In this document: positions 39,126 through 58,476 of the stretch, one piece after another
How the letters are laid out: each line of letters starts with the position of its first letter
Numbering within the stretch: the first letter of the stretch is position 1
IMG/VR virus record: IMGVR_UViG_3300043410_000715
Coordinates: 25,711 to 89,710 of that record
From: a virus
Taxonomy: Duplodnaviria > Heunggongvirae > Uroviricota > Caudoviricetes
Reading direction: 5' to 3' (one strand)
DNA length: 64,000 bases
The notes under the pieces: model-generated
Told to the model about the DNA's origin: nothing
Database searches by the model: none
The model's input: the letters and a program-made list of their open reading frames with translations, nothing else
Program-made: the position numbers and the translations under genes

Positions 39126-39132
39126 ATACTAG

Positions 39133-39825
39133 ATGAGAGCAAGTGAGTTTATCAAAGAAGAAGCTAGAATTATCGATGAGATGCCGCTACCTGCGGATTG
39201 GGATCCTGCATCAATGCGTCAGCAAGCTACTACGTTCAAAAGTCGTTTAGCCTATGCGTTAGAACGTGCTAAAAAATTAGGCACCGGATCAAGTCGTGTT
39301 GCTACTGTTATTGAGTATGAAGGTCGTCCTACTGTATTAAAGATTGCTAAGAATCAAAAAGGTCTAGCACAGAACAGTGTTGAGGCAGATATTCTTAGTG
39401 ATGGATATGCAAAACAGTTAGGTATACTAATACCAATCATTGACTATGATGAAGAAAATCGTGAACCTAGTTGGATTCACACTGAAATGGCCACTAAAGC
39501 TAGTGAGAAACAATTGTGTAACATAATGAAATGTTATGGTCTTGTTGATTTAGTTATGGCCGCACAAGCTCAATTAAATGAATATGGACAACGTTCACGT
39601 AGTGTACTGGACGACATTCTTGAAAAAAATCAGTTCTATGGTAACAGTGAAGATGACAATGAAATCTTCCTGCAATATGTTAACGACTTCGCTGACTTGA
39701 AGAATTCGTTTGATGTTGAATTGGGTGATTTTAACAGAGCCGCTAATTGGGGCATGTATCAAGGTAAACCAGTTGTAGTTGATGTGGGATTCAACAGCAA
39801 TGTTATGAATCAATATTATCGTTAA
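39133..39825 (+). CDS. hypothetical protein
   Basis: 230-aa ORF, last gene of the plus-strand island. Confidence 0.5.
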   Translation: MRASEFIKEEARIIDEMPLPADWDPASMRQQATTFKSRLAYALERAKKLGTGSSRVATVIEYEGRPTVLKIAKNQKGLAQNSVEADILSDGYAKQLGILIPIIDYDEENREPSWIHTEMATKASEKQLCNIMKCYGLVDLVMAAQAQLNEYGQRSRSVLDDILEKNQFYGNSEDDNEIFLQYVNDFADLKNSFDVELGDFNRAANWGMYQGKPVVVDVGFNSNVMNQYYR

Positions 39826-40646
39826 ACTTTTAACAACTCTTCCATCGTATACAAGTTACGCATATAAGGTGAAACATCTTCTAATACAGAAACAGCAAGA
39901 TCACCTTTTCTTCTAGGTCCATACTTTACATCAAAGTCACAATCGTTTACTTCCATAAATTTATTGACAATTTCACGAACAGTATATCCAACACCATGTC
40001 CCAATGATTCAACACTATTACTTGGTTTCTCTATTGCTTGCTTTAATGCATCACAAATCTCATTGACATGTACATAGTCACGAATACAAGTTCCATCAGG
40101 ACTTGCATCATAGTCCTTACCGAAAATAGTGAATTCTCCTGTTTCTCGGGCCTTCATTAAATTGTACATTAATCCATCGGGGTTAGTGGGAGCCACGACG
40201 GTGCTTCCAATAACATTATAAAATCTAAAGATTGTATATGGTGTCGGGCGATGGGTTGTACAATATTCTCCAACTACATCTTCTGCGGCTCTTTTGCTAA
40301 TACCGTATGCACTCTCACATCCAACTGCGGCACCTGTACTAGCAAAGATAAAGTTCTTTGTCTTGATTTTGTTAATCACATTCATTGTACCATTCAAGTT
40401 TGTGATGTAATACTGAATGGGTATTTGTTCGCTCTCACCCACATTAACTAATGCGGCTAAGTGAATAACGGCATCATATTCTTCTTCAATATTAAACAAT
40501 TTACGAATGTCAATCGTGTGATGCGTCTTGGGGAGTAGTTGCGGTGGATTAATGTCAAGCCCATGAACTTCATATTCATCTTGTAACATCTTAGTCAGAT
40601 GACTACCGATATATCCCGAGTTGCCTGTAATTAAAATCTTTTTCAT
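39822..40646 (-). CDS. NAD-dependent epimerase/dehydratase (short SDR-type sugar-nucleotide epimerase)
   Basis: 274 aa. N-terminal Rossmann motif ILITGNSGYIGSHL. Catalytic YxxxK (YGISKRA). Confidence 0.75.
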   Translation of the reverse strand: MKKILITGNSGYIGSHLTKMLQDEYEVHGLDINPPQLLPKTHHTIDIRKLFNIEEEYDAVIHLAALVNVGESEQIPIQYYITNLNGTMNVINKIKTKNFIFASTGAAVGCESAYGISKRAAEDVVGEYCTTHRPTPYTIFRFYNVIGSTVVAPTNPDGLMYNLMKARETGEFTIFGKDYDASPDGTCIRDYVHVNEICDALKQAIEKPSNSVESLGHGVGYTVREIVNKFMEVNDCDFDVKYGPRRKGDLAVSVLEDVSPYMRNLYTMEELLKV

Positions 40647-41998
40647 AGTCCCTCAAATAAGTTAGTTTCTTCTTCGTCTGGTACAAAGGTAGCATCTTTT
40701 GATAGATAAGTGTGATTGTCCGTATAAATGACGTTGAATTTATGTCTATTGGTTAACACACTTTCAAAATCTTCTCTCGCTAAATGTTTACGATTTAACT
40801 CTTTGATATAGTCAGCGTATTTCACTGTTTCGTATTCATTGATTTTAGCTTGATTAGATTTTGCTTTTCTACCTTCATACCCGTCAATAAAATCAATCCA
40901 AGACTGAACAGTATCAGTGTCAATAGACTTGACATATTCTAACGCTCCTGTTTTGTAATATTTTTCTGGATTAGATGTGTCGTGTAATCTTTTTAACGTG
41001 TCAGAAACTTCATCCATGTTAGTTCTATAATAGTAGATGTGTAGGAAATTCTCAGACCAATCTTGTGTGTCTAACACTACGCTAGGCATGTGTCCTAAAC
41101 ATTCATAGAATGCGAACGGAAAGTTTTCACGCAAGCTAGGCATAAAAAATACTGCACAACTTTTAATAAAGTCTACTTTCTCTTGTCCAGTAATCCCTGC
41201 TTTGATTTCGTAGTCAGTGATACCATTCTCTGCAAAAGCCTTCTCGAACTTCTTTTGTCCGTTACTGTTAGTCATAACTTTGCAGGGTAATCCTGATTCT
41301 TTCATCGCTTTGATATATGCTTCTGGGTTCTTACCTTCTTCCCATCGACCAATAAACAATACACCCCTGCGTTTCTTATAACTAGGCTCTAGTAACCCAC
41401 GCTCACTCAATGGCATCTGTAAAATACTTACATATTTTGAACCATGACTTTCTAATTCTATTTTGTTTTTCAGTGATTGAGTGCCGATAAAGATATCAGG
41501 AAATTCCATATGTTTGTTGTAGAAGTTGTGATAACTATCTAAGAACACATCACTACCTTGACCTGAACGGAAAATCATACTGTGTAAATGAGTATAGAAA
41601 ATCACAGGGATATCTTTATTCAAAGTCATCGCATAAGCCGCACTCATTGCTTCCTGCGTGTTGCACAAAATCATGTCATAGAGATTTTCTTCAAATGCTT
41701 CTAAGATGCTGTTACGGAAATTAATAATCTTTTCAAAGTTGATTGTATCACTAAACGCAAATGTAGCAGTGTGGTCACTATAACGTAGTGGTTCTAGTGG
41801 CCAAATAATGTTGGCACCAGCAGCCTCAATCACTTTATCAAACCCACCTGTAGGAGCCTTGTCTAAAAGAATATCTACTTTCCAACCAATCCGACCACAC
41901 ATTTCTGTAAAACTCTTACAGAAACTACCAATGCCACCATGCGGGATAAAATGTTGGTCACTAATTAAAAACGCAATTCTTTTCTTATATGTTTTCAT
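40643..41998 (-). CDS. glycosyltransferase (GT-B fold, GT4-like)
   Basis: 451 aa. Start overlaps the epimerase stop. Confidence 0.6.
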   Translation of the reverse strand: MKTYKKRIAFLISDQHFIPHGGIGSFCKSFTEMCGRIGWKVDILLDKAPTGGFDKVIEAAGANIIWPLEPLRYSDHTATFAFSDTINFEKIINFRNSILEAFEENLYDMILCNTQEAMSAAYAMTLNKDIPVIFYTHLHSMIFRSGQGSDVFLDSYHNFYNKHMEFPDIFIGTQSLKNKIELESHGSKYVSILQMPLSERGLLEPSYKKRRGVLFIGRWEEGKNPEAYIKAMKESGLPCKVMTNSNGQKKFEKAFAENGITDYEIKAGITGQEKVDFIKSCAVFFMPSLRENFPFAFYECLGHMPSVVLDTQDWSENFLHIYYYRTNMDEVSDTLKRLHDTSNPEKYYKTGALEYVKSIDTDTVQSWIDFIDGYEGRKAKSNQAKINEYETVKYADYIKELNRKHLAREDFESVLTNRHKFNVIYTDNHTYLSKDATFVPDEEETNLFEGL

Positions 41999-42234: not shown

Positions 42235-42449
42235 TCAATTTTACCCCATTTAACTTTGAGCCATATGCGTTCGTGTATATAGTAATCTATACTTAGAAGT
42301 ATGTGAATCAGAACTGAACTCCCGATTGATTCTTCTAAGTTACCAGTAAGCCAATACATTATTGGTATTGTGAGTAACCACGCTGATAAGCGATAGGTAA
42401 TCATTCTAACTACTGTTCGTTTGTGTGTCTCTGCCATCATGTTCCCCAT
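42231..42449 (-). CDS. small membrane protein
   Basis: 72 aa with two TM helices. Confidence 0.45.
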   Translation of the reverse strand: MGNMMAETHKRTVVRMITYRLSAWLLTIPIMYWLTGNLEESIGSSVLIHILLSIDYYIHERIWLKVKWGKIE

Positions 42450-43279
42450 TCATTTTTAAATAATGGCACTTGCAATCTATCACTATAACGCCAGCCACGT
42501 TTCATTGCTGCCAATGCTACATTCTTTGCGTTCATTTCGTAAACACTTTCAACACCACCAACGGGCATCAAGTAGACTGGACCTTTGAATCCGCAGTTTT
42601 TGTATTCTTGTGTAGCTTTTTCAGCTTCCAATACATCTTCTTCTGAAGCCACCACGAACTTAAGGTATACAAAACCCACATCTTGGTATTGACGTATAAC
42701 ATTAGGCAAAATTGCTTCATTATACTTTTCTCCACTTACTGATAATTTAGGACTTACACTAAAAGTTAGTGCATTCTTTTCTCTATTTCTTTTCCAAAGT
42801 TGCAAGAATTCTTTAAATTCTTCACTCAAATGTTGTGTTCCGTTAGTCTCAAATGTTAACTCTTTGAGAGCCCTCATTTTTTCGTTCGAAAGTAATTCAG
42901 GATAGCTTCTTTGCCATCCAAGAAGTGGCTCACCCCCAGTAATAACCAAGTGTTCATCCATCCAACGACCATGAGGAAGTAAATCAATAATGCTATCGGC
43001 AATAGTATTAACATTGAGCATAGGACTAAGATGCTTGAAACGAGGGTCCCATGAAGCATATGAATCACAGCCCGTAGACACCAACGGTAAATTTTTATAC
43101 TCTGTAATACTATCTGCATCAATTGTAAACCTTTCATTACTAGTTTGACCTCTAGGCATACCGAAGCCTTCACATTTGAAGTTGCACCCAAATGTTCTCA
43201 AAAACACAGAAGGAACGCCCATATAACGTCCTTCACCTTGAATGCTATAAAATAATTCAGCTATTTTTAACTCTGCCAT
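42437..43279 (-). CDS. queE: 7-carboxy-7-deazaguanine synthase QueE (radical SAM)
   Basis: 280 aa. N-terminus FYSIQGEGRYMGVPSVFLRTFGCNFKC matches QueE (FQTLQGEGYFTGVPAIFIRLQGCPVGC). Confidence 0.85.
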   Translation of the reverse strand: MAELKIAELFYSIQGEGRYMGVPSVFLRTFGCNFKCEGFGMPRGQTSNERFTIDADSITEYKNLPLVSTGCDSYASWDPRFKHLSPMLNVNTIADSIIDLLPHGRWMDEHLVITGGEPLLGWQRSYPELLSNEKMRALKELTFETNGTQHLSEEFKEFLQLWKRNREKNALTFSVSPKLSVSGEKYNEAILPNVIRQYQDVGFVYLKFVVASEEDVLEAEKATQEYKNCGFKGPVYLMPVGGVESVYEMNAKNVALAAMKRGWRYSDRLQVPLFKNEWGT

Positions 43280-43298
43280 TTCTTTCTTTCATAATTCT

Positions 43299-43853
43299 TT
43301 ATGATAAATCAATAACCATTTCTTGTAAATAGAACTCGGAAAAATCTTCAATATATGGTACTATTGTTTTTACCAGTGTACTTACTTTCATTCTATCAGT
43401 TGGATTTTCGCCAGACGTATCTGCGGCTTTTGTATCAATCCATCCTGGAAAAACTGACATTATCAATGGTGTCTTTTTGGTGTTAGCATGTTGTCTAGCG
43501 AAAACCATTTGATTCATTTTTTCCGTATAATATTTTGATTCTTGTGTGCCCGGAACAATCAATGAAGGATCCTTTAACACCTTTTTACTATTCATGTTTA
43601 CTATTAACTTTTTAAAACCCAACCAAGATGCTGTTGCCTTCTTTAATAATTCAAGTTGTGATTCACCATAAACATTATTAATAAACACATCGCACGATTT
43701 TAACTGTTCAAGTATTAAATCTTGCGTGTGACTGTCAACTACATTATAGCCATTTAGCAAATCATAACCATGTATCACATGACCTGCATTTCTTAACTGA
43801 GTGGCAAATTCTAAACCAATACCACCCATATGCCCTGTAATTACTATATTCAT
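43299..43853 (-). CDS. short-chain dehydrogenase/reductase-like protein (truncated SDR)
   Basis: 184 aa. TGxxGGIG dinucleotide motif (ITGHMGGIG), YxxxK (YYTEK) and PGxIxT (PGWIDT). Confidence 0.6.
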   Translation of the reverse strand: MNIVITGHMGGIGLEFATQLRNAGHVIHGYDLLNGYNVVDSHTQDLILEQLKSCDVFINNVYGESQLELLKKATASWLGFKKLIVNMNSKKVLKDPSLIVPGTQESKYYTEKMNQMVFARQHANTKKTPLIMSVFPGWIDTKAADTSGENPTDRMKVSTLVKTIVPYIEDFSEFYLQEMVIDLS

Positions 43854-44002
43854 TTACCAATGCCTTATAACGCCTGCAACAATAAAAATATTTGTGACTA
43901 TATATGTTAGCACAATGCAGGTTCTAATCAAAGCGATACGGTCAGCTTCCTGATCCGTATCACCTGATTTTTCGCCAAGGGCTTTCGCCCATAAACGCCA
44001 AA
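43854..44002 (-). CDS. small membrane protein (49 aa)
   Basis: Below cutoff. MKNIWRLWAKALGEKSGDTDQEADRIALIRTCIVLTYIVTNIFIVAGVIRHW. Stop overlaps the ATG of the SDR gene as TAAATG. Confidence 0.3.
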
Positions 44003-44011
44003 TGTTCTTCA

Positions 44012-44632
44012 TTATCCTTGGTCAGTATCGTGTATACGCTTCTTTAAGAAGTTCAATAGAACACCATATGCTGGTAAGAACACAATAATACCTACTGCAA
44101 TCTTTAGGATAGTTTGACTCAATGCAATTTCACTCCAGTTAGCCGCCATGTATTCGTCTGCACTTTGATAGAATGCAACACTGAAGAATGTGTAACTATC
44201 AATAAAGTTTGCGGCAATCATTGATAATGCAGGAGCCGCCCACCATTGCTTAGTGAACTTCTCACGGACATATTGGAATACATATACATCAAGTAGTGTA
44301 CCTACTAAGTATGCTGTTGCACTAGCAAAACCAATACGCAATGCTACTGATTGAGGTGCTCCCTCTAACAATACAACTGCAATACTACCTAAGATAGCAA
44401 ATGGATATGCTGCCGCAATAGTTGCCCGTGCAATACCTTTACCTAGTAAACGGACTGTCAAGTCTGTTGCCAAAATAACTAATGGGAAGGTAAATGCCGC
44501 CCAAGTTAATTTAACACCTAAGATTTCAACTGGGATTGAAACCAATGCGTTTGAAATTATAATAACAATAACGTGCAATACTGCAAGCATTGCCATCATT
44601 TTCTTATCTACGTCTTTAAATAATGAAAACAT
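44012..44632 (-). CDS. yhhQ: queuosine-precursor (preQ0/preQ1) transporter, YhhQ/Vut (DUF165) family
   Basis: 206 aa, six TM helices. Size and topology match YhhQ. Sits within the que gene cluster. Confidence 0.7.
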   Translation of the reverse strand: MFSLFKDVDKKMMAMLAVLHVIVIIISNALVSIPVEILGVKLTWAAFTFPLVILATDLTVRLLGKGIARATIAAAYPFAILGSIAVVLLEGAPQSVALRIGFASATAYLVGTLLDVYVFQYVREKFTKQWWAAPALSMIAANFIDSYTFFSVAFYQSADEYMAANWSEIALSQTILKIAVGIIVFLPAYGVLLNFLKKRIHDTDQG

Positions 44633-44634
44633 TT

Positions 44635-45138
44635 TTACTCCTTAAATAAATCTTCATTCCACTCTCTATGACCTTCTCTGAAAGCCATATTGCTTTGAGT
44701 CTCCCGTACTTCTACACGGTAGCACCAAAGTCTTTTTGCTTCTCCCTCACCCCACATCTCAGGAATGTAAACACCATTGACATACTTGTATAGCATATCA
44801 CTTAGTGCTTCACAACCTAACGCAGGCAAGACGATGATTTTAGCCATCTTCTTTTCTTGTAATAGTTTGAATGTTTCCATTTCTGGATCATCTTGTGCTA
44901 CGATAAGTGTGTGGTCGAATTGATCTTCCAAGAACTTCTTCAATTCTTTTAGACCACCATAGTCGGCAGCCCAGTTACGGGCATCTAAATCGTTTGTACC
45001 GAAATAGAATTTCATACTGAAACTGTAACCATGAATTGTGTTGCAATGGCTGTCTGCACGCCATTGACGATAAGCACACGGAAACGCATCGTGGTATTCT
45101 TTTGTGCTTGTGTATTTGTATGTAATTGGATTATGCAT
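44635..45138 (-). CDS. queD: 6-carboxy-5,6,7,8-tetrahydropterin synthase QueD / PTPS-like
   Basis: Start moved to Met21 (AGGAGAAAAT Shine-Dalgarno). CNTIHGYSF matches the QueD zinc motif CGRLHGHSF. T-fold size. Confidence 0.75.
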   Translation of the reverse strand: MHNPITYKYTSTKEYHDAFPCAYRQWRADSHCNTIHGYSFSMKFYFGTNDLDARNWAADYGGLKELKKFLEDQFDHTLIVAQDDPEMETFKLLQEKKMAKIIVLPALGCEALSDMLYKYVNGVYIPEMWGEGEAKRLWCYRVEVRETQSNMAFREGHREWNEDLFKE

Positions 45139-45212
45139 ATTTTCTCCTATGTTAATTTTAGCATAGGACGCAGAATTTATATACCGGGGTGAGCCCATAA
45201 GACCGGTTTATG

Positions 45213-45674
45213 TTATTTACCATTTTCAGATTCAGCTACTCTTTTTCTCAAACTAGAACTTGAGAAACTATGGTCACGAGAGTTAAACACGTGTTCTATA
45301 CCTTTTTCGGTCCCTTCTTTTCTACCAGTAAAGTCCTGACTTTGATATTCGACACCGAGTATTCTAACGTCAACTGGAAGGATGAGGAGAAGGTCGATGA
45401 GGTCTTGTTCGGTTGAGTATACAACAACTTCATCAACAAAACGACACGATGCCAATTGTATTTGTCGCTCCACAATTGACTGTACAGGTTTATTCTTCGT
45501 ATCTGGTCTGTCGATAGTGGGGTCAGTTTGGAGTCCTGCAATAAGGTAGTCACAATGATTTTTAGCCTCAGCCAACATAGCAATGTGCCCTGCGTGAAGT
45601 AAGTCAAAAGTTGAGAATGTAATGCCAATCTTTTTGCCTGCTTCTTTAAGTTGTTTTATCTTGTTGAATATCAT
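45213..45674 (-). CDS. nucleotidyltransferase (cytidylyl/adenylyltransferase, TagD / RfaE domain II-like)
   Basis: 153 aa. HxGH motif (FDLLHAGH). Confidence 0.75.
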   Translation of the reverse strand: MIFNKIKQLKEAGKKIGITFSTFDLLHAGHIAMLAEAKNHCDYLIAGLQTDPTIDRPDTKNKPVQSIVERQIQLASCRFVDEVVVYSTEQDLIDLLLILPVDVRILGVEYQSQDFTGRKEGTEKGIEHVFNSRDHSFSSSSLRKRVAESENGK

Positions 45675-45969
45675 CTGGTAGTATTTCTTCTATTTCTGTT
45701 TCATCTTCAAAGTAATGAACATGATAAGTTTTACCTGCATGTTCATATACATCTGTCCATGATCTTTGATTGTTACTTGATTCAATTGGTTCTACTAAAG
45801 CAAATACAGTTAACATGTGGTCATGTTCTTGACCTGTGATTTTCCTACGATTAGGACCTAGAATATGTCGCATGAACTTTTTAAGTTCTACTGGATCATT
45901 TATGATTCTTTCAGCAGCCTCTTGTATTAGTTCAACGCTTGTTTTAGTCATAACTTTAAAGTCTTCCAC
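45646..45969 (-). CDS. hypothetical protein
   Basis: 107-aa ORF. Confidence 0.45.
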   Translation of the reverse strand: MEDFKVMTKTSVELIQEAAERIINDPVELKKFMRHILGPNRRKITGQEHDHMLTVFALVEPIESSNNQRSWTDVYEHAGKTYHVHYFEDETEIEEILPDDIQQDKTT

Positions 45970-46241
45970 ATTACACGCTGTTCATTCTCTTTTAAGAATT
46001 GTTCTTCATCAGCGAATGTAGGACTATCTTTCATAATCTGATCCAACATCCATTTGAGTTTATACAAATCTTTTTTGATTTCCCATTGAGTGAAACCGTC
46101 ATTGTATTTGCTACTCATTTCTACACCTGCCATATAGATTTGATGATGCACTTGATTGTAGTCCATTGGTTTACGAAATCCCATCTTTCTTCTCCTTGCA
46201 GTTACAGTTACGACCTTGATTGCAGTTACCTGTACAAGCAC
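45948..46241 (-). CDS. hypothetical protein
   Basis: 97-aa ORF. Confidence 0.45.
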   Translation of the reverse strand: MLVQVTAIKVVTVTARRRKMGFRKPMDYNQVHHQIYMAGVEMSSKYNDGFTQWEIKKDLYKLKWMLDQIMKDSPTFADEEQFLKENEQRVMWKTLKL

Positions 46242-46371
46242 TATCTGGTGTGTTCTTTATAGTATAAAACATGAACAAGCCCGCCACACAAAATAAAAAT
46301 ATGTAAACTGCTTGTTCAATAATCATTCCAAGTAATAAACTCATGTTTGAAAGAAATTCAATCATTTGCAT
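46171..46371 (-). CDS. small membrane protein with Cys-rich C-terminus
   Basis: 66 aa. One TM helix. CTGNCNQGRNCNCKEKK tail. Confidence 0.4.
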   Translation of the reverse strand: MQMIEFLSNMSLLLGMIIEQAVYIFLFCVAGLFMFYTIKNTPDSACTGNCNQGRNCNCKEKKDGIS

Positions 46372-47042
46372 CCTTTGTTAGCAATTTGTAAGAACTCACC
46401 ACGTGCAGATGGATCTGTTTTGAAACCGCCACCCAATCGGCATGTAACTGTGCTGGATCCCGTATCTTCAACACCTCTTGATTTAACACAATAGTGTTGT
46501 GCGTCAATGAGGACTGCAACATCTTCAGTTTCAAGAATGAACTGAAGTGTGTGGAAGATTTGCTCGGTAAGACGTTCTTGGATCTGAGGTCGTTTACTAA
46601 AATACTCGACAATTCGATTAATCTTCGATAAGCCAAGGACTTTCTGCTTAGGAACATAAGCAACTGTAGCCAAGCCATCAATAACGACAAAGTGATGTTC
46701 GCAGTTACTTTGGACTGAAACGTTTCGTTCAACGACCATTTCGTTGTAGTGCATTTTGTTATCAACTGTAGTACACTTTGGAAATGCTTCATAATCTAGA
46801 CCCCAGAAAATTTCATTAACATACATTTTAGCAACACGCTTAGGTGTTTCAGTTAAACTATCATCAGTTAAGTCTAATCCTAAGATACGCATGATTTCAG
46901 TGAAGTGACCTTCGATGCCTGCAATTTGATCCTTGCGGTCGATGTTGCGTTTGTTGATTGGTGTTTCTACACCCATTTTGACTAAGTGCTCATGCACTTG
47001 TTGACCCAACTCAGGGTCGGTTTTTGTTTTGTTATAACTCAT
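46362..47042 (-). CDS. folE: GTP cyclohydrolase I FolE
   Basis: Start moved to MSYNKTKT (AAGGAAGGA Shine-Dalgarno). Aligns along its full length to E. coli FolE, including the CEHH zinc motif and the SKINR block. Confidence 0.9.
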   Translation of the reverse strand: MSYNKTKTDPELGQQVHEHLVKMGVETPINKRNIDRKDQIAGIEGHFTEIMRILGLDLTDDSLTETPKRVAKMYVNEIFWGLDYEAFPKCTTVDNKMHYNEMVVERNVSVQSNCEHHFVVIDGLATVAYVPKQKVLGLSKINRIVEYFSKRPQIQERLTEQIFHTLQFILETEDVAVLIDAQHYCVKSRGVEDTGSSTVTCRLGGGFKTDPSARGEFLQIANKGCK

Positions 47043-47077
47043 AGAATCCTTCCTTACGCGGATATGAAAATTGAAAT

Positions 47078-47097
47078 GTGCTACCGTTGTGTAGCAC
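47078..47097 (-). terminator. hairpin GTGCTAC-n6-GTAGCAC upstream of folE (possible terminator or attenuator)
   Basis: 7-bp perfect inverted repeat followed on the minus strand by ATTTCAATTTTCA. Confidence 0.3.
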
Positions 47098-47109
47098 ATG
47101 TATTTATAC

Positions 47110-47352
47110 TCAGTTGTCGAGTTCTTTAGAATTCCACTCTTTGATTACGGCGATCATTTCTTCTTCCGTGTTGCAAAGAATTTTACAATTCTTCCAATCT
47201 GAATCTGAATCACGACCTCCGATTTCTACCATAAAACCGTTATCATACCGATTGACACTGATAGATTCATTTACTTTTGCGAGTTTGTTTAGTTTTGACA
47301 TTTTATTTTGCCTTTGCTTCAGCACGTTCGTTTTTAGTTGCTGTAATTTCAT
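47110..47352 (-). CDS. hypothetical protein
   Basis: 80-aa ORF. Confidence 0.45.
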   Translation of the reverse strand: MKLQQLKTNVLKQRQNKMSKLNKLAKVNESISVNRYDNGFMVEIGGRDSDSDWKNCKILCNTEEEMIAVIKEWNSKELDN

Positions 47353-47494
47353 TACGGCGAGCCTTAACTGCCTTCGCTAATTCTGCTAGTGCTTTACGGG
47401 CACGTGTGCCTGCGGCATTGTTGCCCTTTTCAAATTTTTCACTCTCTGCTAAATATGCTTCCAAGTGTGTGTTGATATCGTTATGTGCGCTCAT
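47303..47494 (-). CDS. small basic histone-like DNA-binding protein
   Basis: 63 aa. KGNNAAGTRARKALAELAKAVKARRNEITATKNERAEAKAK. Confidence 0.45.
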   Translation of the reverse strand: MSAHNDINTHLEAYLAESEKFEKGNNAAGTRARKALAELAKAVKARRNEITATKNERAEAKAK

Positions 47495-47718
47495 TTTTTC
47501 TCCTTTGATTTACGCTTTGGTTTTGGTTTTGCTTTCGCTTCTTCTGTTTCTACAGAGGCAATTGCTTCTCTTACTGCTTCCAATAATGCTTCATCGTCCC
47601 AAACAAGTTCAGTTGAACCATCTTCAAAAGTCTTTACGGTCAGGTGTTGACCTTGACTAATTACGGGCCAACCACCTGATGGTTCGTTAGCCAATACTTC
47701 TTTTTTCTTTCGTGCCAT
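47491..47718 (-). CDS. hypothetical protein with Lys-rich C-terminal tail
   Basis: 75 aa. Ends in EEAKAKPKPKRKSKEKK. Confidence 0.45.
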   Translation of the reverse strand: MARKKKEVLANEPSGGWPVISQGQHLTVKTFEDGSTELVWDDEALLEAVREAIASVETEEAKAKPKPKRKSKEKK

Positions 47719-48224
47719 TATTCTTCCTCCTTAGTGCCTTCTTGTGGTCTAGTGAAGGGCCATTTTGCTCTTTCTTCTACAATAGGTGCAAGTTCAGGTA
47801 AGACTTCTTCTTCTGGTTGACCAGTGTGAATAATTTGTTCTTCGTCACCGTCGATGCGTTCAATGATTAAGTCGCAATCAATAATCATTTCAGTATCATT
47901 GCTATACCAACCGTGTTCTTCCAAATCAAATACAGAATTTTCTTCTAGGAATTCTTCTAGCCACGCTTGTGTTTCTTCATCACAACCGTCGAAATCATAA
48001 TCGTCCCAGCATCCATCAAATGTTTCTACAAGTTCAGTTTCATAGTCACAGTTATAGATATCTACACCTGCTTCAATGTCTGGGGGATTGTCATCATCTG
48101 TGTATACAGTAAACTCACCACCGCGCCAACCTGTTTCATAGATGAATGATTGTCCATCTTTAGTCCATTCTTGGCGCTCAATAATTGATTTCTTCCACTG
48201 GGGTTTTACGCTCCACTCAGCCAT
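47718..48224 (-). CDS. hypothetical highly acidic protein
   Basis: 168-aa ORF. Confidence 0.5.
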   Translation of the reverse strand: MAEWSVKPQWKKSIIERQEWTKDGQSFIYETGWRGGEFTVYTDDDNPPDIEAGVDIYNCDYETELVETFDGCWDDYDFDGCDEETQAWLEEFLEENSVFDLEEHGWYSNDTEMIIDCDLIIERIDGDEEQIIHTGQPEEEVLPELAPIVEERAKWPFTRPQEGTKEEE

Positions 48225-49134
48225 TTGTTGTCTCCTCTAAATCTGGATCGATACTAATTCCCTGCCACTCTTTAATTTTCACTTCTTCATCATTCCATGT
48301 CTTGATCCACTTATCACCAGTCCACTTTGCTTGATATGTATAACTATTCTTACCAGCAGTCTTTACATTATATATACCTTCACGGACTGGTTTGATTTTT
48401 TTAGGGAACCAGTCAGTCAATGGATAAACAATGTCATCCATGTTTGAATACTTCTCGTATCCCTTACCATCGTGCTTGTTAGAGCCTGCAATGTAGAAAC
48501 CAAAGTCTGAACTCTTGCCACTAGTGTCACCACCGTAGTTGTCAATTTGTTCATCGTTATAGTACACACCGGTGATGATTTCGTTACAATCAATCTCTGA
48601 ATATTCGAGTGAAAGTTTAGTGATATCGAAAGGAGATTTTAGTTCTAAGTGACCTTCATAGAACGTACCTTTCTCACTGCTTACTCCTAAGAATACAACA
48701 GTGCCTGGATCTTTCATGTCAATCCATATCTCGTCACCACCACGCCATTCAGGGCTATCTTCACTGTAACCATCAATGTTATCAGTACTGGCTTCATAAA
48801 CTACATTGTCGTTTTCGTCTAAGATTTGCAACGTGCCTGCGCCTCTGTCAACACCCCAGTGATGACCCATATCATCACAGTCATGCCATTGACCTGGATA
48901 GAATGGTTGCATATCTTCAGGAATTTGATTGTCATTAGCATAGTCACTATCCCAGGCATAGTCACTTATGTCAAGACGGCGTCTTTTGAAATAGTCGTAT
49001 ATTTTGCGGTCTACTGTACCCATCACATATTCACCACCATATCCCCACAATTGAATCTTGTAAGTACACGGAGTGAACTTTAAAATCTCAATGAGTTTTT
49101 CATGCTCAGGGTTTTTAACTACTTCTGTTGACAT
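48217..49134 (-). CDS. hypothetical protein
   Basis: ORF 48217-49230 trimmed to Met33, which sits 1 nt after the stop of the upstream glycosyltransferase (TAA-T-ATG). Confidence 0.5.
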   Translation of the reverse strand: MSTEVVKNPEHEKLIEILKFTPCTYKIQLWGYGGEYVMGTVDRKIYDYFKRRRLDISDYAWDSDYANDNQIPEDMQPFYPGQWHDCDDMGHHWGVDRGAGTLQILDENDNVVYEASTDNIDGYSEDSPEWRGGDEIWIDMKDPGTVVFLGVSSEKGTFYEGHLELKSPFDITKLSLEYSEIDCNEIITGVYYNDEQIDNYGGDTSGKSSDFGFYIAGSNKHDGKGYEKYSNMDDIVYPLTDWFPKKIKPVREGIYNVKTAGKNSYTYQAKWTGDKWIKTWNDEEVKIKEWQGISIDPDLEETTNG

Positions 49135-49135
49135 A

Positions 49136-50323
49136 TTAGTATTTGCTTTCTCTAGAATGTTTACGATAATCGGTTGACATACGAAGGTATTGTTCACCCT
49201 TCCCCTCAATGATATCACAGATACGGTCAATAGTCAAGTCAGTCCAGTCACTGATTTTACCCATGTTATCACTGGGCTTCTTCAATAACTTTTCAAGTTT
49301 GTCCAAAGCATCATCAATAGACCATGGTACGTAAAGTCTGGTATAATCATTTGCAAAAGTTTCTGGGAAACTCCTATAAGCAGGATACAACACATTGCAA
49401 CCAAGAGCGTCCGCTTCGGAAACTGTGTTACTAACCCAATCTTGTAAAGCACAGTTAAAAACAACACGACTATCATTGACAATATTATAGTAATCATTTT
49501 TGTTTAAATCCTCATGTAAAGTTAAGGTTCCTGCAGCCTGCATATTTCGGGTGCGTTGCATATAACTATCGTTGTTACTTTTTAATTTTGCACCTGAACA
49601 AATTGCAAACTCTACACCACTTCCAGGATGACGTTTGTGCCAAGCATCAATTAAATCCATATAGAAGTCTGGTTGTTTTTCTTGATCCCATCGTGCTGAG
49701 AACACGACACGATGTTTGCGTTCATTGAATGGTTTGATTGTACCAACTCGTTCAATTACTTCTTGTTTACCAAATGCTAGACCACTGATATTGTAGATTG
49801 GAACTTCCCAACCTGCAATCTTCATGTTCATGACCATTTCTTCGTTAGACGCAAGGATAGCACCCCCACTTTGACTGACAGCCTCACACACCATCTGTTC
49901 ATATAGCCCCATCCACTTGGACATCCCCCATACATGCACAAAGTCATCAGGGTCGATTGACTGAGCCAAGCATCTAACAAAAATCTTTGGACGATGCGAC
50001 TGAGGGACCTGATTAAGAATATAAGGCAAACTCTCAAAGCCTGGTTGAAACATATCTTCAAAGTAGATAACATCTTCACTTGTAACAATTCCTTCTTTCA
50101 TCCACTTGACCAATGTCATTAATTGACTCATGCCAAAATAACTACGACCATGTGCATCTAATACTTGACCTGTTACGATTTGTTGGTCTGTAGATAATGT
50201 TTCACCGGGTACTACTACATAGTCAATACCTCTACGCTTAAAGACACGCTCATTCCACTCTGTGAGTTGTAGAGTGTATCTTGCTTTGTAGGGTTCTAGA
50301 CCCATGTAATATAGTGTTCTCAT
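49136..50323 (-). CDS. glycosyltransferase (GT-B fold)
   Basis: 395 aa with two Rossmann-like halves. Overlaps the upstream nucleotidyltransferase by ATGA. Confidence 0.6.
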   Translation of the reverse strand: MRTLYYMGLEPYKARYTLQLTEWNERVFKRRGIDYVVVPGETLSTDQQIVTGQVLDAHGRSYFGMSQLMTLVKWMKEGIVTSEDVIYFEDMFQPGFESLPYILNQVPQSHRPKIFVRCLAQSIDPDDFVHVWGMSKWMGLYEQMVCEAVSQSGGAILASNEEMVMNMKIAGWEVPIYNISGLAFGKQEVIERVGTIKPFNERKHRVVFSARWDQEKQPDFYMDLIDAWHKRHPGSGVEFAICSGAKLKSNNDSYMQRTRNMQAAGTLTLHEDLNKNDYYNIVNDSRVVFNCALQDWVSNTVSEADALGCNVLYPAYRSFPETFANDYTRLYVPWSIDDALDKLEKLLKKPSDNMGKISDWTDLTIDRICDIIEGKGEQYLRMSTDYRKHSRESKY

Positions 50324-51096
50324 TCTTTTCTCTCAATATCTTCTTCTACACATTCTTCACCGTATTGTATTTCTACAATACGACAAGGAATTTCATATGG
50401 GTTAATTAACTGATGCCAATCACCTTTAGGAATATGTTTACTATGATGTTCATTTAATAACGTTACTGGCAAAACATAACCATTTGGCATCATGCTATTG
50501 ACATGACACATACCATGTGTAACTAGCCAATATTCATTACGCTTAAAATGTTTTTGCATACTAAGACGTTGACCAGGTTCAATTGTTAGTTCTTTAACTT
50601 TGCATCCTGATACTTCGTGTAGTATACGATAATATCCCCATGGTCGCATTATTTTAGGTTGCTTCCATTCTTGCAATATCCAAGAACTGGAATTCATTTT
50701 GTTTTCACCACCGACGCCGAAAACAAAATTAACATCATCAAATACCATTTCTGGAATGTTGTTTTTATTTCTATCGCCACCGTTAGCAAAAATGATTTCA
50801 TCATTTGGATACATCATTTTTACATTACGAATAGCTTCGATGCTAGAACCATCGTCATCGTTATAGATAACACAATGATCTACCATTTTTAAATTCTCAA
50901 TGATTGACATACGTTCAGCAATAGGCATAAAAGGTTGGCCCTTTTTACGAGCCAACCATGCGTCACTGTTTACGCCAACAACTAACTTGTCGCCTAACTG
51001 TTTTGCGGCTTTGAAATATTCAATATGACCGCTATGTAGTGGATCAAATCCACCAGTGACTAAAACTATTTTCATGGACGTGCGTGTTCCACCCAT
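50320..51096 (-). CDS. sugar-phosphate nucleotidyltransferase (RfaE domain II-like) fused to C-terminal cupin
   Basis: 258 aa. N-terminal TGGFDPLHSGHIEYFKAAKQLGDKLVVGVNSDAWLARKKG matches the RfaE II motif [40 protein letters not shown]. C-terminal cupin motifs (QKHFKRNEYWLVTHG). Confidence 0.7.
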   Translation of the reverse strand: MGGTRTSMKIVLVTGGFDPLHSGHIEYFKAAKQLGDKLVVGVNSDAWLARKKGQPFMPIAERMSIIENLKMVDHCVIYNDDDGSSIEAIRNVKMMYPNDEIIFANGGDRNKNNIPEMVFDDVNFVFGVGGENKMNSSSWILQEWKQPKIMRPWGYYRILHEVSGCKVKELTIEPGQRLSMQKHFKRNEYWLVTHGMCHVNSMMPNGYVLPVTLLNEHHSKHIPKGDWHQLINPYEIPCRIVEIQYGEECVEEDIERKE

Positions 51097-51278
51097 TGAT
51101 TTTTTACTGGTCTGCTAGTAGCAAACTTAGTAAATTGACGATACACATAACTCCGCTGATTGTATAAATCTGCTTCGTCATACTTATAACCATACTCTTG
51201 GCAAAAATCTAAATATTTGTCTAAATCGTCAAAGATTTGATTGACTTTTGCGTTGGGTTTGATTTGCGGTTTTGCCAT
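51072..51278 (-). CDS. hypothetical protein
   Basis: 68-aa ORF. Confidence 0.45.
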   Translation of the reverse strand: MAKPQIKPNAKVNQIFDDLDKYLDFCQEYGYKYDEADLYNQRSYVYRQFTKFATSRPVKNQWVEHARP

Positions 51279-51289
51279 TTTATTTTCCT

Positions 51290-51745
51290 TTAAATAGCGA
51301 GTTGTTGATAAGGTTTAGTTCTATTGTAATAAATCGTAGCGCCGTTCTCACCATCTTCGGAGACAGTAATCTCAATGTCACGATCGGGATATCGTTGTGC
51401 GATTTGATTGTATAAATCATCGCTCAACATTTCACAACTTTTGTAATCCAACTCTAGTGTGCCTTGAGAATATAACTTCTCTAGCCAACGCTTGAATTGA
51501 ATAAACTCAATATCCCTGTCGTTGTGAAATACTTCAATCGCTACATTAAAATGAAAGATGTGACGATGTGGAGTTCCTAAAAAGCTAACATCATATTCAT
51601 CACCTGTTGCAAGTGCTGGATCTGTTGCTGCCGCTGGGTACTTATGAATACCCTCTTTTTGAAATGTTACAAAAATCATACGTTTAGCCTGATGACTAAT
51701 GCGTTGCATTTGTTCAAATAATGCTTGTTCTCTTTGAATGTCCAT
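51290..51745 (-). CDS. hypothetical protein
   Basis: 151-aa ORF. Confidence 0.5.
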   Translation of the reverse strand: MDIQREQALFEQMQRISHQAKRMIFVTFQKEGIHKYPAAATDPALATGDEYDVSFLGTPHRHIFHFNVAIEVFHNDRDIEFIQFKRWLEKLYSQGTLELDYKSCEMLSDDLYNQIAQRYPDRDIEITVSEDGENGATIYYNRTKPYQQLAI

Positions 51746-51987
51746 TAATAATTCCTATTAAGTGTTGCCCATGTTAACCACTGATGAAATGCATTATACA
51801 CTCTTTCAGCTTCTTTTTCATCTTGAGGTACCTTAATACCTCTTACATAAAATCCGTCTTTATCAATACGCAGTTGTTCACCGGTACCCATATGAAACGT
51901 AATATTACTTTCGGAATCTACTGATAAAGCTCTGTCAATCATATTCATTTCCAATAAGGTCCCCATGCCCAACCAATTAATGACCAA
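51745..51987 (-). CDS. hypothetical protein
   Basis: 80-aa ORF. Confidence 0.45.
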   Translation of the reverse strand: MVINWLGMGTLLEMNMIDRALSVDSESNITFHMGTGEQLRIDKDGFYVRGIKVPQDEKEAERVYNAFHQWLTWATLNRNY

Positions 51988-52511
51988 CGTGTGCCTGACA
52001 CAATCGGTGTAATTTCGTGTGGGAAAAAAGTAGGAAATGAAATTACACTACCCTTTTTCAATTTATGTTTTATTCCCAAAACGTTAAATTCTCCACCTTC
52101 GTATTCGTCATCGTTCGTTAATTGTACACTTAACGTAATCTTCCTGTCTATACTTCCGGTTAAACTGTAATAATTATCTGTATGTCTACCGAAATAATCA
52201 CCTGATGTATAACGTTTTAATTCATATGGCTCAACAAAATCAATATCAACTTCAAAATGATTTCTTATTTCTTGCCAAACATCTTGTAAATTCTTATGCG
52301 CTTCGTTTTCTAACGGTAGCAAACAGGTATGAAAACTTACATCAAATAACTGAGTATACTTGTTTATGCCTTGTTTAACATTATCAGTGCCGAATTTAAT
52401 GATATCATCACACAGTGATGCATCAATCACATTTTCTTTAACAAAGATGCGTTTTTCTATATCCCAACTTATGTCAGGTTTAGGACTGTTTGGTATATTA
52501 TCTGTCATCAA
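51945..52511 (-). CDS. 2OG-Fe(II) oxygenase (prolyl-4-hydroxylase-like)
   Basis: 188 aa. HxD...H facial triad (HTDNYY ... FPHEITP). RxS-type 2OG contact (RWS). Confidence 0.6.
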   Translation of the reverse strand: MMTDNIPNSPKPDISWDIEKRIFVKENVIDASLCDDIIKFGTDNVKQGINKYTQLFDVSFHTCLLPLENEAHKNLQDVWQEIRNHFEVDIDFVEPYELKRYTSGDYFGRHTDNYYSLTGSIDRKITLSVQLTNDDEYEGGEFNVLGIKHKLKKGSVISFPTFFPHEITPIVSGTRWSLIGWAWGPYWK

Positions 52512-52707
52512 AATCTACTGTTTGGCTATCTTCATACTGCGCCCTACGTAGCAAACGCAATTGGTCAAGGTACTTATCTCTTGCTTCTAGTAATTTAGAT
52601 AATTTCTTAGTATCAACATCATCTGCTTTTTCTAGATTTGCAATTTGAATTTCAACTAAACGATATGATTCTTCTAACGTTTTAATTCGATTTTCATACA
52701 TAATCAA
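52498..52707 (-). CDS. hypothetical coiled-coil protein
   Basis: 69-aa ORF. Confidence 0.45.
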   Translation of the reverse strand: MIMYENRIKTLEESYRLVEIQIANLEKADDVDTKKLSKLLEARDKYLDQLRLLRRAQYEDSQTVDFDDR

Positions 52708-54275
52708 TTCTCCAATACATTTGCCATTTCATCATCACTATCTTCAATGATTTCATCTATCTCTGGATCATTGTTTTCAACTTCAAACAATTTATCAAAC
52801 ATAGTCATAGCATTGATAGTTTTCTTACCGCTGAACCCTTGACTACCTGATTGCATTTGTGTCCAGAAGTTAGTATGTTTCTCAATAATTGCAATACTAT
52901 CTTGTTTTGTTTTTTGTGAGAAGATTTCGTCTACGAGTTGACCAAATGTTTCGCCTGTGAATTTATCACGAACCATCTTAGGAACAATTCCTTGTTCATA
53001 TCTACGATTAGCTTCTTGCACTGCATTCATATGCATCCACACATTGTGAGATTGAATCAATGTGTAGCTTAATGTATCCCAGCTTGTTTTAGTTTCTTTA
53101 CCATGTTGACCAATAAAGCCTTTACCACGATAACACAAGTCCTTCATAACCATCATATCAGTGACTGGACTATCAGTAAACATTGTGTGGATGTTATCAG
53201 CTAAACATGCATCACGGTATTTACGCATGTCACCTGCATATGTTGTTGTCACGCCATAGTTTTTGTTTTCTGCTGTCTTTTCCATACTATATGACCACTT
53301 TTTATCGTGCTCAATGCTAGTGTTAAAATAAGCAAGACCTTTAGCCGCACTAAAGAAAGGACTAGCACAGTCAAATGTAATTTGTAATTTGGGATTGTGA
53401 TATTTACGAATTGCTTTTTGAATATCAGTAAACAACACAGCATACTCTAAAATTGACACACCCAAACAGTGAATCAAGTCATGTTTACCTTCTTGTAACA
53501 AGCCGTCATAAATGATATCTACTAGTCTAGTTAGCATCAAGTGAACGTCAATCTTATTTTGACCACCGAATGCCCAGCCATTAAAATGAGTATCAGGATA
53601 GATGTTTGGATCACAATACTTCTTCATCTCTGCATACCAATCTTCTGATTGTGTATGACTGCGACCTTGTAACACATTTAAGAACTTGCATTTACCATTG
53701 CGATTATTGATAAAATATTCATTGTTGATATGTGTAGCTTTAACAGCATCTTCAATAAATTGAATGCCGTGTGCTGATTTACCTGTCTTAGGATCCTTGA
53801 TATGATAAGTTGTCAATGATTGCGAAGGGATATCTAAACACATACCATAGTCCATGTATGTATCCATCCATGTTAACACTTCCTTGCGCTTTTTCATAGC
53901 ACGAGGGCAGTTGGGGTCTTTCCAATCAGCGGGCCATTGACATTTTAAAATTTGAAATCCACCTGAGTCTCCCAACATGAAAGTACCTTCTTCACGTTCT
54001 CTAATGATAGATTCATTGGGATCGTCTTTGGTAACATCTAAGTTAGCGTGACCAGCAGAATACAAGCCCCACTTGTATGTGTACAATCCTTCTTTGCTGT
54101 TTAAGAAGTTAAGTTTCTCAACGTCACCATTGAAACTGGCGGGAATACGTTCTTTAGGAAAATATTCCTCACCTTTACGTTGTTTACCTAAGCCAGCAAT
54201 ATAAAAACTACTGACTGCTGGTAAGAATAATGCCCAATCTGGATTTTGTTTTGCTGATAAATTATCTTGATTCAT
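52704..54275 (-). CDS. dpdA: DpdA-like DNA/tRNA-guanine transglycosylase family protein (oversized)
   Basis: 523 aa. Contains the TGT catalytic signature DSGGFQ (FMLGDSGGFQILKC). Lies in the cluster with folE, queD, queE and yhhQ. About 150-200 aa longer than typical DpdA. Confidence 0.65.
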   Translation of the reverse strand: MNQDNLSAKQNPDWALFLPAVSSFYIAGLGKQRKGEEYFPKERIPASFNGDVEKLNFLNSKEGLYTYKWGLYSAGHANLDVTKDDPNESIIREREEGTFMLGDSGGFQILKCQWPADWKDPNCPRAMKKRKEVLTWMDTYMDYGMCLDIPSQSLTTYHIKDPKTGKSAHGIQFIEDAVKATHINNEYFINNRNGKCKFLNVLQGRSHTQSEDWYAEMKKYCDPNIYPDTHFNGWAFGGQNKIDVHLMLTRLVDIIYDGLLQEGKHDLIHCLGVSILEYAVLFTDIQKAIRKYHNPKLQITFDCASPFFSAAKGLAYFNTSIEHDKKWSYSMEKTAENKNYGVTTTYAGDMRKYRDACLADNIHTMFTDSPVTDMMVMKDLCYRGKGFIGQHGKETKTSWDTLSYTLIQSHNVWMHMNAVQEANRRYEQGIVPKMVRDKFTGETFGQLVDEIFSQKTKQDSIAIIEKHTNFWTQMQSGSQGFSGKKTINAMTMFDKLFEVENNDPEIDEIIEDSDDEMANVLEN

Positions 54276-54673
54276 TAAGGTACCATTGATGGTTTATATT
54301 GCTCACCTTCGTTACCAGAACTTTTCAACAGAGTTGTTACCATTTTGATTTGGTCTTCTTTCTGCTTAATTTGTTCTACTAAGTCTTTGATAGCAGGATT
54401 CTTTTCGGCAAGTTGCTCACGTTCTATTTCTTCATTACGTTTCTGGCGAGCCCAGTTTAATAGTGATTCAACTTCCGGAGATAGACCAATGCTCATTGAA
54501 CCCATGTTTAATTGAATCCAAGTAGTACCATCAAATACTTCAGTCCTTTGACTTGTAGTATTGTATCTCATATTACCTACACCCTGAGCACCACTGTACC
54601 CATTCACATAAGTACTACCTGGGGCACCAGATACAACGACTGAGCTAGAAGATGAAAAGATATTACCTATCAT
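54275..54673 (-). CDS. hypothetical protein
   Basis: 132-aa ORF. Confidence 0.5.
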   Translation of the reverse strand: MIGNIFSSSSSVVVSGAPGSTYVNGYSGAQGVGNMRYNTTSQRTEVFDGTTWIQLNMGSMSIGLSPEVESLLNWARQKRNEEIEREQLAEKNPAIKDLVEQIKQKEDQIKMVTTLLKSSGNEGEQYKPSMVP

Positions 54674-55401
54674 TTTGCCTGTGCAGGGAGTAAGTAACGA
54701 TATGTTGCAATACCGCTGTTAACTGTGATTTCTGTAGCGCCAGCATCGCTAATGCGAACAGTTTTATCACCGACTAAGTCCATAATACTAATAAACTGTT
54801 TAACAGGCCACATCCATGCTTTGTTTAATGTTCCAGTAACACCTGGTTGAAACACAAAATTACCACTGTGTGTGCTTGGATCTCCGAAATAAATCTTTAA
54901 GTCAGAACCATCAGTTTTTGTAGTGAAGTGCGCTTCTTCGCTGTTTGCACTTGCTTGTTTCTTTAGACGCTGAATACCTGCAACAGTTGGTTCAAACTCA
55001 ACGTTCCATGCGGCACCTTTAAATACAACAACCTTCACTTTTTCTTCAACGATGTTTTTGTTCATCAATCGATAGTCGTTAACGAAACTACCGTCTTTAG
55101 TTTCAAAGTGAATTGTAGTTGGTACGTCTTCATTATCACGTTTTGTTTTAACAACATTAACAATAGATGTATCGTCATAATCATCAAAGCTGATGATAGT
55201 CTTAAGTTTGCTCAAGTTGGGCATACCGAAGGTACCTTCAAAGTCAATGATGGGAGTACTAAATGTACCAGAAACGATTACAGATTTATCTTCTGCAATT
55301 GCGTTGATGGTTGTTTCAGTTTGTGTACCAGTAACCTTGATTAGTTCGATACAGCCTAGACCAAATGTATGGTCGATTAAATCTTTTAAATAGTCTTTCA
55401 T
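54670..55401 (-). CDS. putative sliding clamp (gp45-like)
   Basis: 243-aa ORF immediately downstream of the DNA polymerase gene. Call rests on T4-type synteny and protein size. No strong motif. Confidence 0.4.
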   Translation of the reverse strand: MKDYLKDLIDHTFGLGCIELIKVTGTQTETTINAIAEDKSVIVSGTFSTPIIDFEGTFGMPNLSKLKTIISFDDYDDTSIVNVVKTKRDNEDVPTTIHFETKDGSFVNDYRLMNKNIVEEKVKVVVFKGAAWNVEFEPTVAGIQRLKKQASANSEEAHFTTKTDGSDLKIYFGDPSTHSGNFVFQPGVTGTLNKAWMWPVKQFISIMDLVGDKTVRISDAGATEITVNSGIATYRYLLPAQAK

Positions 55402-55432
55402 GTTTGTCCTTTGTGTTAAGTATTTAGGAAAG

Positions 55433-55461
55433 TATAGTGTGTATTATGATGGAATATATTG
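55433..55461 (-). promoter_or_regulatory. sigma70-type promoter TTGACT-N17-CATAAT
   Basis: Minus strand reads TTGACTTTCGCAATATATTCCATCATAAT, upstream of the clamp gene. Confidence 0.5.
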
Positions 55462-55479
55462 CGAAAGTCAACAGTTCAT

Positions 55480-58194: not shown

Positions 58195-58454
58195 TAAACA
58201 GTTTTACCAACGGTTTCTAAAATTGTGTTAAGTTCTTCGTTTTCTGCGTTTGTTTGTGTTAGGCTTGCTTTGTGTGCAACACGAATAGCCTTTTTGAGTA
58301 CAGAAGGTTTGACTTCTAGTTCTTCTGCGATTGCTTTAATTGTATCGTTTAGACCTTCATTCAACGTATCAATCTCATGTAATACGGTCATGCCTTCATT
58401 AACAAGTTGTGTTAATTTGATTTTCTGGTCACCACTAAACATTTTTGCTGTCAT
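58194..58454 (-). CDS. hypothetical protein
   Basis: 86-aa ORF. ATGA overlap with the polymerase start. Confidence 0.5.
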   Translation of the reverse strand: MTAKMFSGDQKIKLTQLVNEGMTVLHEIDTLNEGLNDTIKAIAEELEVKPSVLKKAIRVAHKASLTQTNAENEELNTILETVGKTV

Positions 58455-58476
58455 AAATATCTCCTAAAGAAGTAGT

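Follow-up and report, generated by a model that had tools for sequence, protein, structure and literature searches.

What base does a phage insert in its DNA when it encodes the first enzymes of 7-deazaguanine synthesis and no QueC? The question is raised by 64,000 nucleotides of a Caudoviricetes genome (positions 25,711 to 89,710 of IMG/VR record IMGVR_UViG_3300043410_000715), hereafter called the window. A previous reading of these letters, made without database searches (the sequence-only reading), had noted genes for FolE, QueD, QueE, a YhhQ-type transporter and a 523-aa candidate DpdA. It had predicted either 7-carboxy-7-deazaguanine (CDG; dCDG in DNA) or preQ0 salvaged from the host as the modified base. 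Our analysis supports the identification of a 7-deazaguanine DNA-modification gene set and leads to another product. The locus is probably a QueC-independent, DpdL-type module of a large environmental phage, whose DNA is expected to be of the 2'-deoxy-7-deazaguanosine (dDG) type. It is a variant of the known DpdL-type pathway; the new points are a divergent subfamily of the inserting enzyme and a linkage with glycosyltransferases.

All the open reading frames (ORFs) listed by the sequence-only reading are present on the minus strand at the coordinates it gave, and FolE, QueD, QueE and YhhQ are recognised by hidden Markov models (HMMs) of their families (Table 1). FolE was correctly named; its end was placed at 47042, which is an internal ATG, and the probable start, of an ORF that extends to 47099. 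The QueD is 51% identical to that of Acidovorax phage ACP17 and has the variant motif CxxxHGY, as do the QueD of phiST and ACP17. The QueE matches all the NCBIfam QueE equivalogs, each below its cutoff, and its cluster cysteines C32, C36 and C71 are kept without exception in a set of six phage QueE. The stretch from C36 to C71 holds an insert of ~34 aa, common to PA5oct, BUCT-ZZ01 and Moby; the QueE of ACP17 and phiST have a compact motif without it.

The absence of QueC and QueF from the window was confirmed. Pfam scans of 60 ORFs revealed neither, tblastn with the QueC of E. coli and Moby gave no match, and the PP-loop motif SGGxDS is missing from all six frames. We then compared the window with 80 related IMG/VR loci (1.12 Mb), which were found with a single-protein query and represent the close clade only. 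None of them has QueC. The matches of the Moby QueC-like probe were confined to Moby's own phage group. A PP-loop gene in the relative L001 (L001:5172-5780) was considered as a QueC and rejected: it is TilS-like (PF01171), it lacks a Cys cluster at the C-terminus, and the window does not have it. In 47 of the 80 loci, a TilS-like PP-loop gene (202 aa; PF01171) also occurs just upstream of the 86-88-aa gene preceding PolB, the family-B DNA polymerase. At this position, next to the gene preceding PolB (58194-58454), the window shows a gap of just 76 bp (58455-58530).

The gene that best answers the question was overlooked by the sequence-only reading, as were the glycosyltransferase genes, even if they lie within the coordinates it gave to the cluster. 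It encodes a 151-aa QueD paralogue in which the motif LxxxHRHxF takes the place of the QueD motif CxxxHGH. This is the signature of DpdL, a paralogue of QueD for which decarboxylation of CDG to 7-deazaguanine (DG) has been proposed (Cui et al. 2023, PMC10516641). The protein is 59% identical to gp125 of ACP17 and 35% identical (3e-9) to gp040 of phiST (CGPG_00067). The motif occurs in 80 of the 82 ORFs that we collected for the DpdL family, and this family aligns with QueD in hhalign (85% probability, E 5.7e-6). Phage phiST encodes FolE, QueD, QueE, DpdL and DpdA3, without QueC, and its DNA contains 302,000 dDG per 10^6 nucleotides and no deoxyguanosine (PMC10516641). In the window and in the clade loci, DpdL similarly co-occurs with FolE, QueD, QueE and the DpdA-like gene in the absence of QueC. 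It lies two to three genes away from the DpdA-like gene and was found in 72 of the 80 loci. The missing QueC is thus expected because the phiST-type pathway runs without it, and the presence of DpdL predicts that the base is DG, not CDG. In setting the gene content against described pathways, the sequence-only reading overlooked phiST and ACP17.

The cluster is part of a single array of minus-strand genes (39.8-58.2 kb) within a phage-like window. Among the related loci, 19 are long enough to span QueD to QueE, and all 19 have the same order: PolB, a clamp-like gene, the DpdA-like gene, DpdL, sometimes a nucleotidyltransferase-cupin gene, the glycosyltransferase GT395, FolE, a nucleotidyltransferase, QueD and QueE. 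Nine of them reach a second glycosyltransferase (GT451) after QueE, followed in four by the epimerase. Searched by megablast in phage genomes, the region gave a sole match, 240 bp of folE. In IMG/VR, 468 stretches match the clade, and the DpdA-like protein and GT395 have thousands of metagenomic homologues at ~80-90% identity, in contigs of up to 345-480 kb. This indicates a clade of very abundant and strongly conserved environmental phages with no cultured member at the DNA level.

The 523-aa protein has no match in Pfam (including PF01702), NCBIfam or PHROGs—i.e., to any curated HMM of DpdA or tRNA-guanine transglycosylase (TGT)—and neither phmmer nor a profile of its family matched a sequence of the PDB. 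Only the comparison of folds and the alignment of profile to profile gave information. The former identified a TGT-type (beta/alpha)8 barrel, as the sequence-only reading had proposed, and Foldseek agrees. The top match, and the nearest among solved structures, is a DNA transglycosylase (bacterial DpdA of Salmonella Montevideo, PDB 7ui4; ~13% sequence identity), above the tRNA TGTs (scores: QTRT2 16.4, TGT 15.6, Cap10 14.0, ArcTGT 13.9, unrelated TIM barrels at most 11.4). In an alignment of 55 sequences of the family, the residues S73, D103, S104, G106, D148, P150, H269, G272 and D302 are invariant. Profile alignment to the E. coli TGT (89% probability, E 2e-6) places D103, D148 and D302 on D89, D143 and the nucleophile D264; the same three aspartates are invariant and essential in DpdA (PMC10164549). 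These residues are therefore the likely active-site aspartates for general acid/base catalysis, base recognition and nucleophilic attack. The alignment shows no TGT-type zinc site (CxCxxC...H), and only C381 (73%), H269 and H410 are singly conserved. Compared with bacterial DpdA and the tRNA TGTs, the protein also has another C-terminal region, and its presumed substrate is DG, not preQ0.

The sequence-only reading regarded this protein as an oversized DpdA that may carry an extra domain for DNA recognition or tailoring. It is indeed longer than the bacterial DpdA (413 aa), but its length is normal for a family whose members have 420-564 aa. The extra length corresponds mostly to the C-terminal helical region and to a disordered acidic tail (residues 477-523), which does not support a tailoring domain as the explanation. 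The protein has more than 7,000 metagenomic homologues (protein clusters at 90% identity), mostly ~80% identical, and a search of the 50%-identity representatives gave 813 matches at E ≤0.001. In cultured phages we found gp168 of the Pseudomonas jumbo phage PA5oct and relatives (34% identity), a protein of Phosso (27%), and a partial homologue in Vibrio phage 2.275.O (30% identity over 34% of the query); the annotation of all of these is hypothetical. The transglycosylases of ACP17, Synechococcus phage BUCT-ZZ01 and Xanthomonas phage BUDD are DpdA2-like (~34% identical to the DpdA2 of nt-1 and VH7D over the N-terminal 60%) and are related to the window protein at the profile level only (hhalign with ACP17 gp123: 96% probability, E 2.9e-9, 176 columns). 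Accordingly, the family HMM gives 1e-8 for ACP17 and Moby versus 1e-121 to 1e-178 for true members. The alignment with the DpdA3 of phiST (gp042, CGPG_00065), whose subfamily also has members in Campylobacter phages, has 55% probability over 82 columns, and reciprocal tblastn searches between the two gave no overlap. As judged from these comparisons, we prefer to class the family as a subfamily of its own, previously unannotated, which includes PA5oct gp168 and the Phosso protein. We identified no DpdB partner for the gene.

Table 1. Genes of the deazaguanine locus and its replication context, in window coordinates.
Feature	Coordinates	Strand	Evidence or remarks
FolE, GTP cyclohydrolase I	46362-47099	minus	NF006824 327 bits (cutoff 202); PF01227 204 bits
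QueD-like 6-carboxytetrahydropterin synthase (PTPS)	44635-45198	minus	PF01242 60 bits, above cutoff; phrog_2389
QueE-like radical SAM enzyme, CDG synthase	42437-43279	minus	phrog_2076 179 bits
DpdL homologue, QueD paralogue, 151 aa	51290-51745	minus	FLGTPHRHIF fits LxxxHRHxF; phrog_17812
DpdA-like DNA-guanine transglycosylase candidate, 523 aa	52704-54275	minus	TGT-fold TIM barrel, C-terminal helical region, acidic tail
GT395, GT4-like GT-B glycosyltransferase	49136-50323	minus	linked to DpdL across phage lineages
GT451, second GT-B glycosyltransferase	40643-41998	minus	weak PF00534 match; follows QueE in clade loci
NAD-dependent sugar-nucleotide epimerase/dehydratase	39822-40646	minus	PF01370 111 bits; phrog_540; after GT451 in 4/9
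Cytidylyl/adenylyltransferase-like protein (RfaE domain II or TagD-like)	45213-45674	minus	PF01467; TIGR02199 83 bits
Nucleotidyltransferase-cupin fusion (mannose-6-phosphate-isomerase C-terminal type)	50320-51096	minus	PF01467 + PF01050
YhhQ/COG1738 queuosine-precursor transporter, accessory	44012-44632	minus	TIGR00697 114 bits (cutoff 51)
Short Rossmann/SDR-like protein, accessory	43299-43853	minus	weak SDR/Rossmann matches only
2OG-Fe(II) oxygenase, accessory, between DpdA-like gene and DpdL	51945-52511	minus	PF13640 52 bits
PolB, family-B DNA polymerase	55480-58194	minus	42-48% identical to Phosso, Atu_ph07, RaK2 (jumbo phages)
Clamp-like protein, 243 aa	54670-55401	minus	Phosso homologue annotated sliding clamp
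Replication context (PolB + clamp-like)	54670-58194	minus	synteny kept in relatives

These elements suggest the following pathway. FolE, QueD and QueE, given their families, would convert GTP to CDG, and the DpdL homologue would decarboxylate CDG to DG, as proposed in the literature for phiST. The 523-aa enzyme, encoded in the replication module by PolB and the clamp-like gene, would then exchange guanine in DNA for the deazaguanine. By analogy with TGT and DpdA, this exchange would take place after replication, by a double displacement involving two aspartates. The resulting DNA would be of the dDG type and resistant to restriction at sites that contain G. YhhQ and the short Rossmann-fold protein resembling short-chain dehydrogenases/reductases (SDR) would be optional extras.

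The locus resembles several known systems of cultured phages. With phiST it shares FolE, QueD, QueE and an LxxxHRHxF DpdL in the absence of QueC, the CxxxHGY motif of QueD, and the position of the cluster beside DNA polymerase genes. The phiST cluster differs in having a 259-aa DpdA3, to which the window transglycosylase has no detectable relation, and MazG-like and ATPase genes that are absent from the window, whereas it lacks glycosyltransferases, nucleotidyltransferases and YhhQ. ACP17, BUCT-ZZ01 and BUDD have DpdL (35-59% identity), a GT395 homologue, QueE, QueD and FolE—BUCT-ZZ01 also the second glycosyltransferase—and differ by their DpdA2-like enzyme. PA5oct (Wroclawvirus; cluster gp168-gp162) has a transglycosylase of the same subfamily, and shares the gene order PolB, clamp-like, DpdA-like, GT395-like, DpdL ... 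QueE. It has in addition a phosphoribosyltransferase and a short Rossmann protein, its cluster genes are all annotated as hypothetical, and we saw no FolE, QueD or YhhQ in the 19-kb locus examined. The DNA of PA5oct resists several restriction enzymes with G in their sites (PMC12191111). Together with the shared gene order, we count this resistance in favour of a dDG-type modification.

Several points weigh against this conclusion. The absence of QueC in this phage covers 64 kb of its genome. The decarboxylase activity of DpdL is itself a proposal, and dDG was not reconstituted in E. coli from the dpdL and dpdA of phiST or ACP17 (Cui et al., PMC10516641). The DpdA-like protein is not detectably related to DpdA3, so the analogy with phiST rests on DpdL, not on the transglycosylase. 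Finally, phiST has no glycosyltransferase, and the end product in the class of phages that encode them could differ from dDG.

This last point leads to the strongest alternative, which we hold to be possible if rather doubtful: the end product would be a sugar-decorated 7-deazaguanine, with GT395 acting on the deazaguanine base, either in DNA or before insertion. The linkage behind it is extensive. In eight lineages (seven and this clade), with two different DpdA types, GT395 is encoded beside DpdL or close to it, and L001 also has it. Its homologue adjoins DpdL in ACP17, PA5oct, BUCT-ZZ01 (63% identity) and Phosso, is separated from it only by DpdA in BUDD, and lies at most 10 kb from it in BCSR5. 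All the homologues of GT395 detectable by tblastn in the phage collection are in DpdL phages. Both glycosyltransferases of the window have orthologues within the compact deazaguanine cluster of BUCT-ZZ01, where that of GT451 (40% identity, 3e-112) lies between FolE and DpdA. Genes for sugar nucleotides are interleaved with the que genes in all 19 long clade loci: the cytidylyl/adenylyltransferase-like gene is between FolE and QueD in each of them, and the nucleotidyltransferase-cupin gene is between DpdL and GT395 in 39 of the 80 loci. In this clade, GT451, the two nucleotidyltransferases and the epimerase would supply and add the sugar. The failure of the ACP17 reconstitution was attributed to possible missing enzymes (Cui et al., PMC10516641), which also fits.

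The chemistry is less favourable. At its C7, 7-deazaguanine offers neither a hydroxyl nor an amine as acceptor of a sugar, GT4 enzymes typically glycosylate oxygen, and linkage alone does not identify the acceptor. Moreover, phiST makes dDG without any glycosyltransferase, and we found no glycosylated deazaguanine in the literature searched. The difficulty could be circumvented by C-glycosylation at the electron-rich C7, or by another DpdL product with an acceptor group. We can thus propose, with little confidence, that in phages with both DpdL and GT395 (this clade, PA5oct, ACP17, BUCT-ZZ01, Phosso, BUDD and BCSR5) 7-deazaguanine is an intermediate, a platform for a sugar; the divergent DpdA-like enzyme would then be the insertase of a glycosylated purine in DNA. 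GT395 is a conserved partner of DpdL whichever the DpdA type, and the final base may therefore be modified further. GT395 is not found near DpdL in phiST, nor in RHph_I1_18, Bakedbeans, Ahp1 and D479 (L011, L014, L015 and L017). The latter four form a second class of DpdL neighbourhoods, in which we recognised neither GT395 nor a DpdA. They share a protein of ~290-420 aa, with a DUF3310 annotation in one case; a dNMP-kinase-like gene and a dUTPase-like gene each occur in three of the four.

It is unlikely that the pathway stops at CDG, or that preQ0, made by the host QueC from the CDG of the phage or imported by YhhQ, ends up in DNA as dPreQ0. These outcomes, favoured by the sequence-only reading, are compatible with the lack of QueC in the window and with the presence of a YhhQ-family transporter, whose predicted substrate is preQ0/preQ1 even if it scores below the cutoff of the E. 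coli-type equivalog (NF008406, 197 bits for a cutoff of 252). In addition, a DpdA2 can insert CDG at low efficiency in an E. coli queC mutant (PMC10516641 Table 2). However, DpdL, part of the phiST-type signature of dDG, is conserved near the DpdA-like gene in the clade, and the only report of dCDG is of trace amounts, in an archaeal virus without these genes. YhhQ is present in the window and in L001 and L002 only. It is found in none of the 80 clade loci, including the 19 that span QueD to QueE, and is thus not the core route of supply. The SDR-like gene is equally absent from the 80 loci, and is missing from the L001 synteny. Both genes are therefore accessory, rather than core components, and for YhhQ this removes the basis of the salvage hypothesis. 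Orthology of the SDR-like gene with PA5oct gp164 was considered and not established, the match being restricted to 59 residues of the Rossmann fold. The 2OG-Fe(II) oxygenase gene is present in 11 of the 80 loci.

Even less probable is a route at the level of nucleotides, in which the base would be converted to a nucleotide and then to a dNTP used by the phage polymerase, the TGT-like protein acting on nucleotides. The full replacement of G in phiST is typical of such routes, and phiST-type clusters have MazG-like and kinase-like genes. Small phosphoribosyltransferases, homologous to each other (2e-8), are encoded inside the deazaguanine clusters of PA5oct (gp163, L005:12946-13380) and BUCT-ZZ01 (L007:4093-4554), and hint that some DpdL phages may have a step at the level of nucleotides. 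In L001, a gene of the GMP-reductase/IMP dehydrogenase family (L001:14485-15516; PF00478, 248 bits) comes directly after GT395; the window has at this position (48217-49230) an unrelated 337-aa ORF, with a counterpart in one of the 80 loci. On the other hand, there is no phosphoribosyltransferase among the window ORFs of at least 60 aa, the solved structure most like the 523-aa protein is that of a DNA transglycosylase, and published work places the modification after replication (PMC10516641). That the genes modify tRNA, as in queuosine or archaeosine synthesis, instead of phage DNA is very improbable: the TGT fold is common to tRNA enzymes and many relatives have the TilS-like tRNA-modification gene near the locus, but the best structural match is a DNA DpdA, the TGT-type zinc cluster and the PF01702 match are lacking, the gene is embedded in a replication module, the DNA of PA5oct is restriction-resistant, DpdL phages have dDG in DNA, and the window has no tRNA genes.

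The rest of the window has several features of its own. The minus-strand array is broken by a plus-strand island (35608-39825) encoding a GP88-family protein, an Fe/Mn superoxide dismutase (37245-37799), a 230-aa ORF with no assigned function, and a second radical SAM protein (37830-39125, plus strand) with a weak SPASM match and no counterpart in the 80 related loci. Elsewhere we found a ClpX-like AAA+ unfoldase with a C4 zinc finger (11056-12258), an ATP-dependent DNA ligase (20094-21443), a UvdE UV endonuclease (34562-35635), and matches to ClpP protease (E 1e-80), Band-7, HSP20, GNAT, SprT and fatty-acid desaturase. A class-I glutamine amidotransferase/peptidase C26 protein (60738-61313) adjoins a periplasmic solute receptor of the TctC family (61310-62269). 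The latter has an N-terminal hydrophobic stretch resembling a signal peptide (putative), and is also encoded in L001. It is an unusual cargo for a phage and possibly a hint to the host.

With 7-deazaguanines in their DNA, phages are shielded against restriction and some of the CRISPR nucleases; such modifications are themselves targets of modification-dependent host defences. The locus described here extends the QueC-independent DpdL route beyond a few cultured phages, to environmental phages that form a very abundant clade. None of the standard annotation libraries detects their transglycosylase, and surveys based on the Pfam TGT family or on DpdA1-4 therefore undercount such phages. The linkage between DpdL and glycosyltransferases may account for the failure to reconstitute dDG from dpdL and dpdA alone, and may point to an undescribed purine modification that bears a sugar. 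If the latter is true, a glycosylated purine in DNA would be a kind of hypermodification not yet described.

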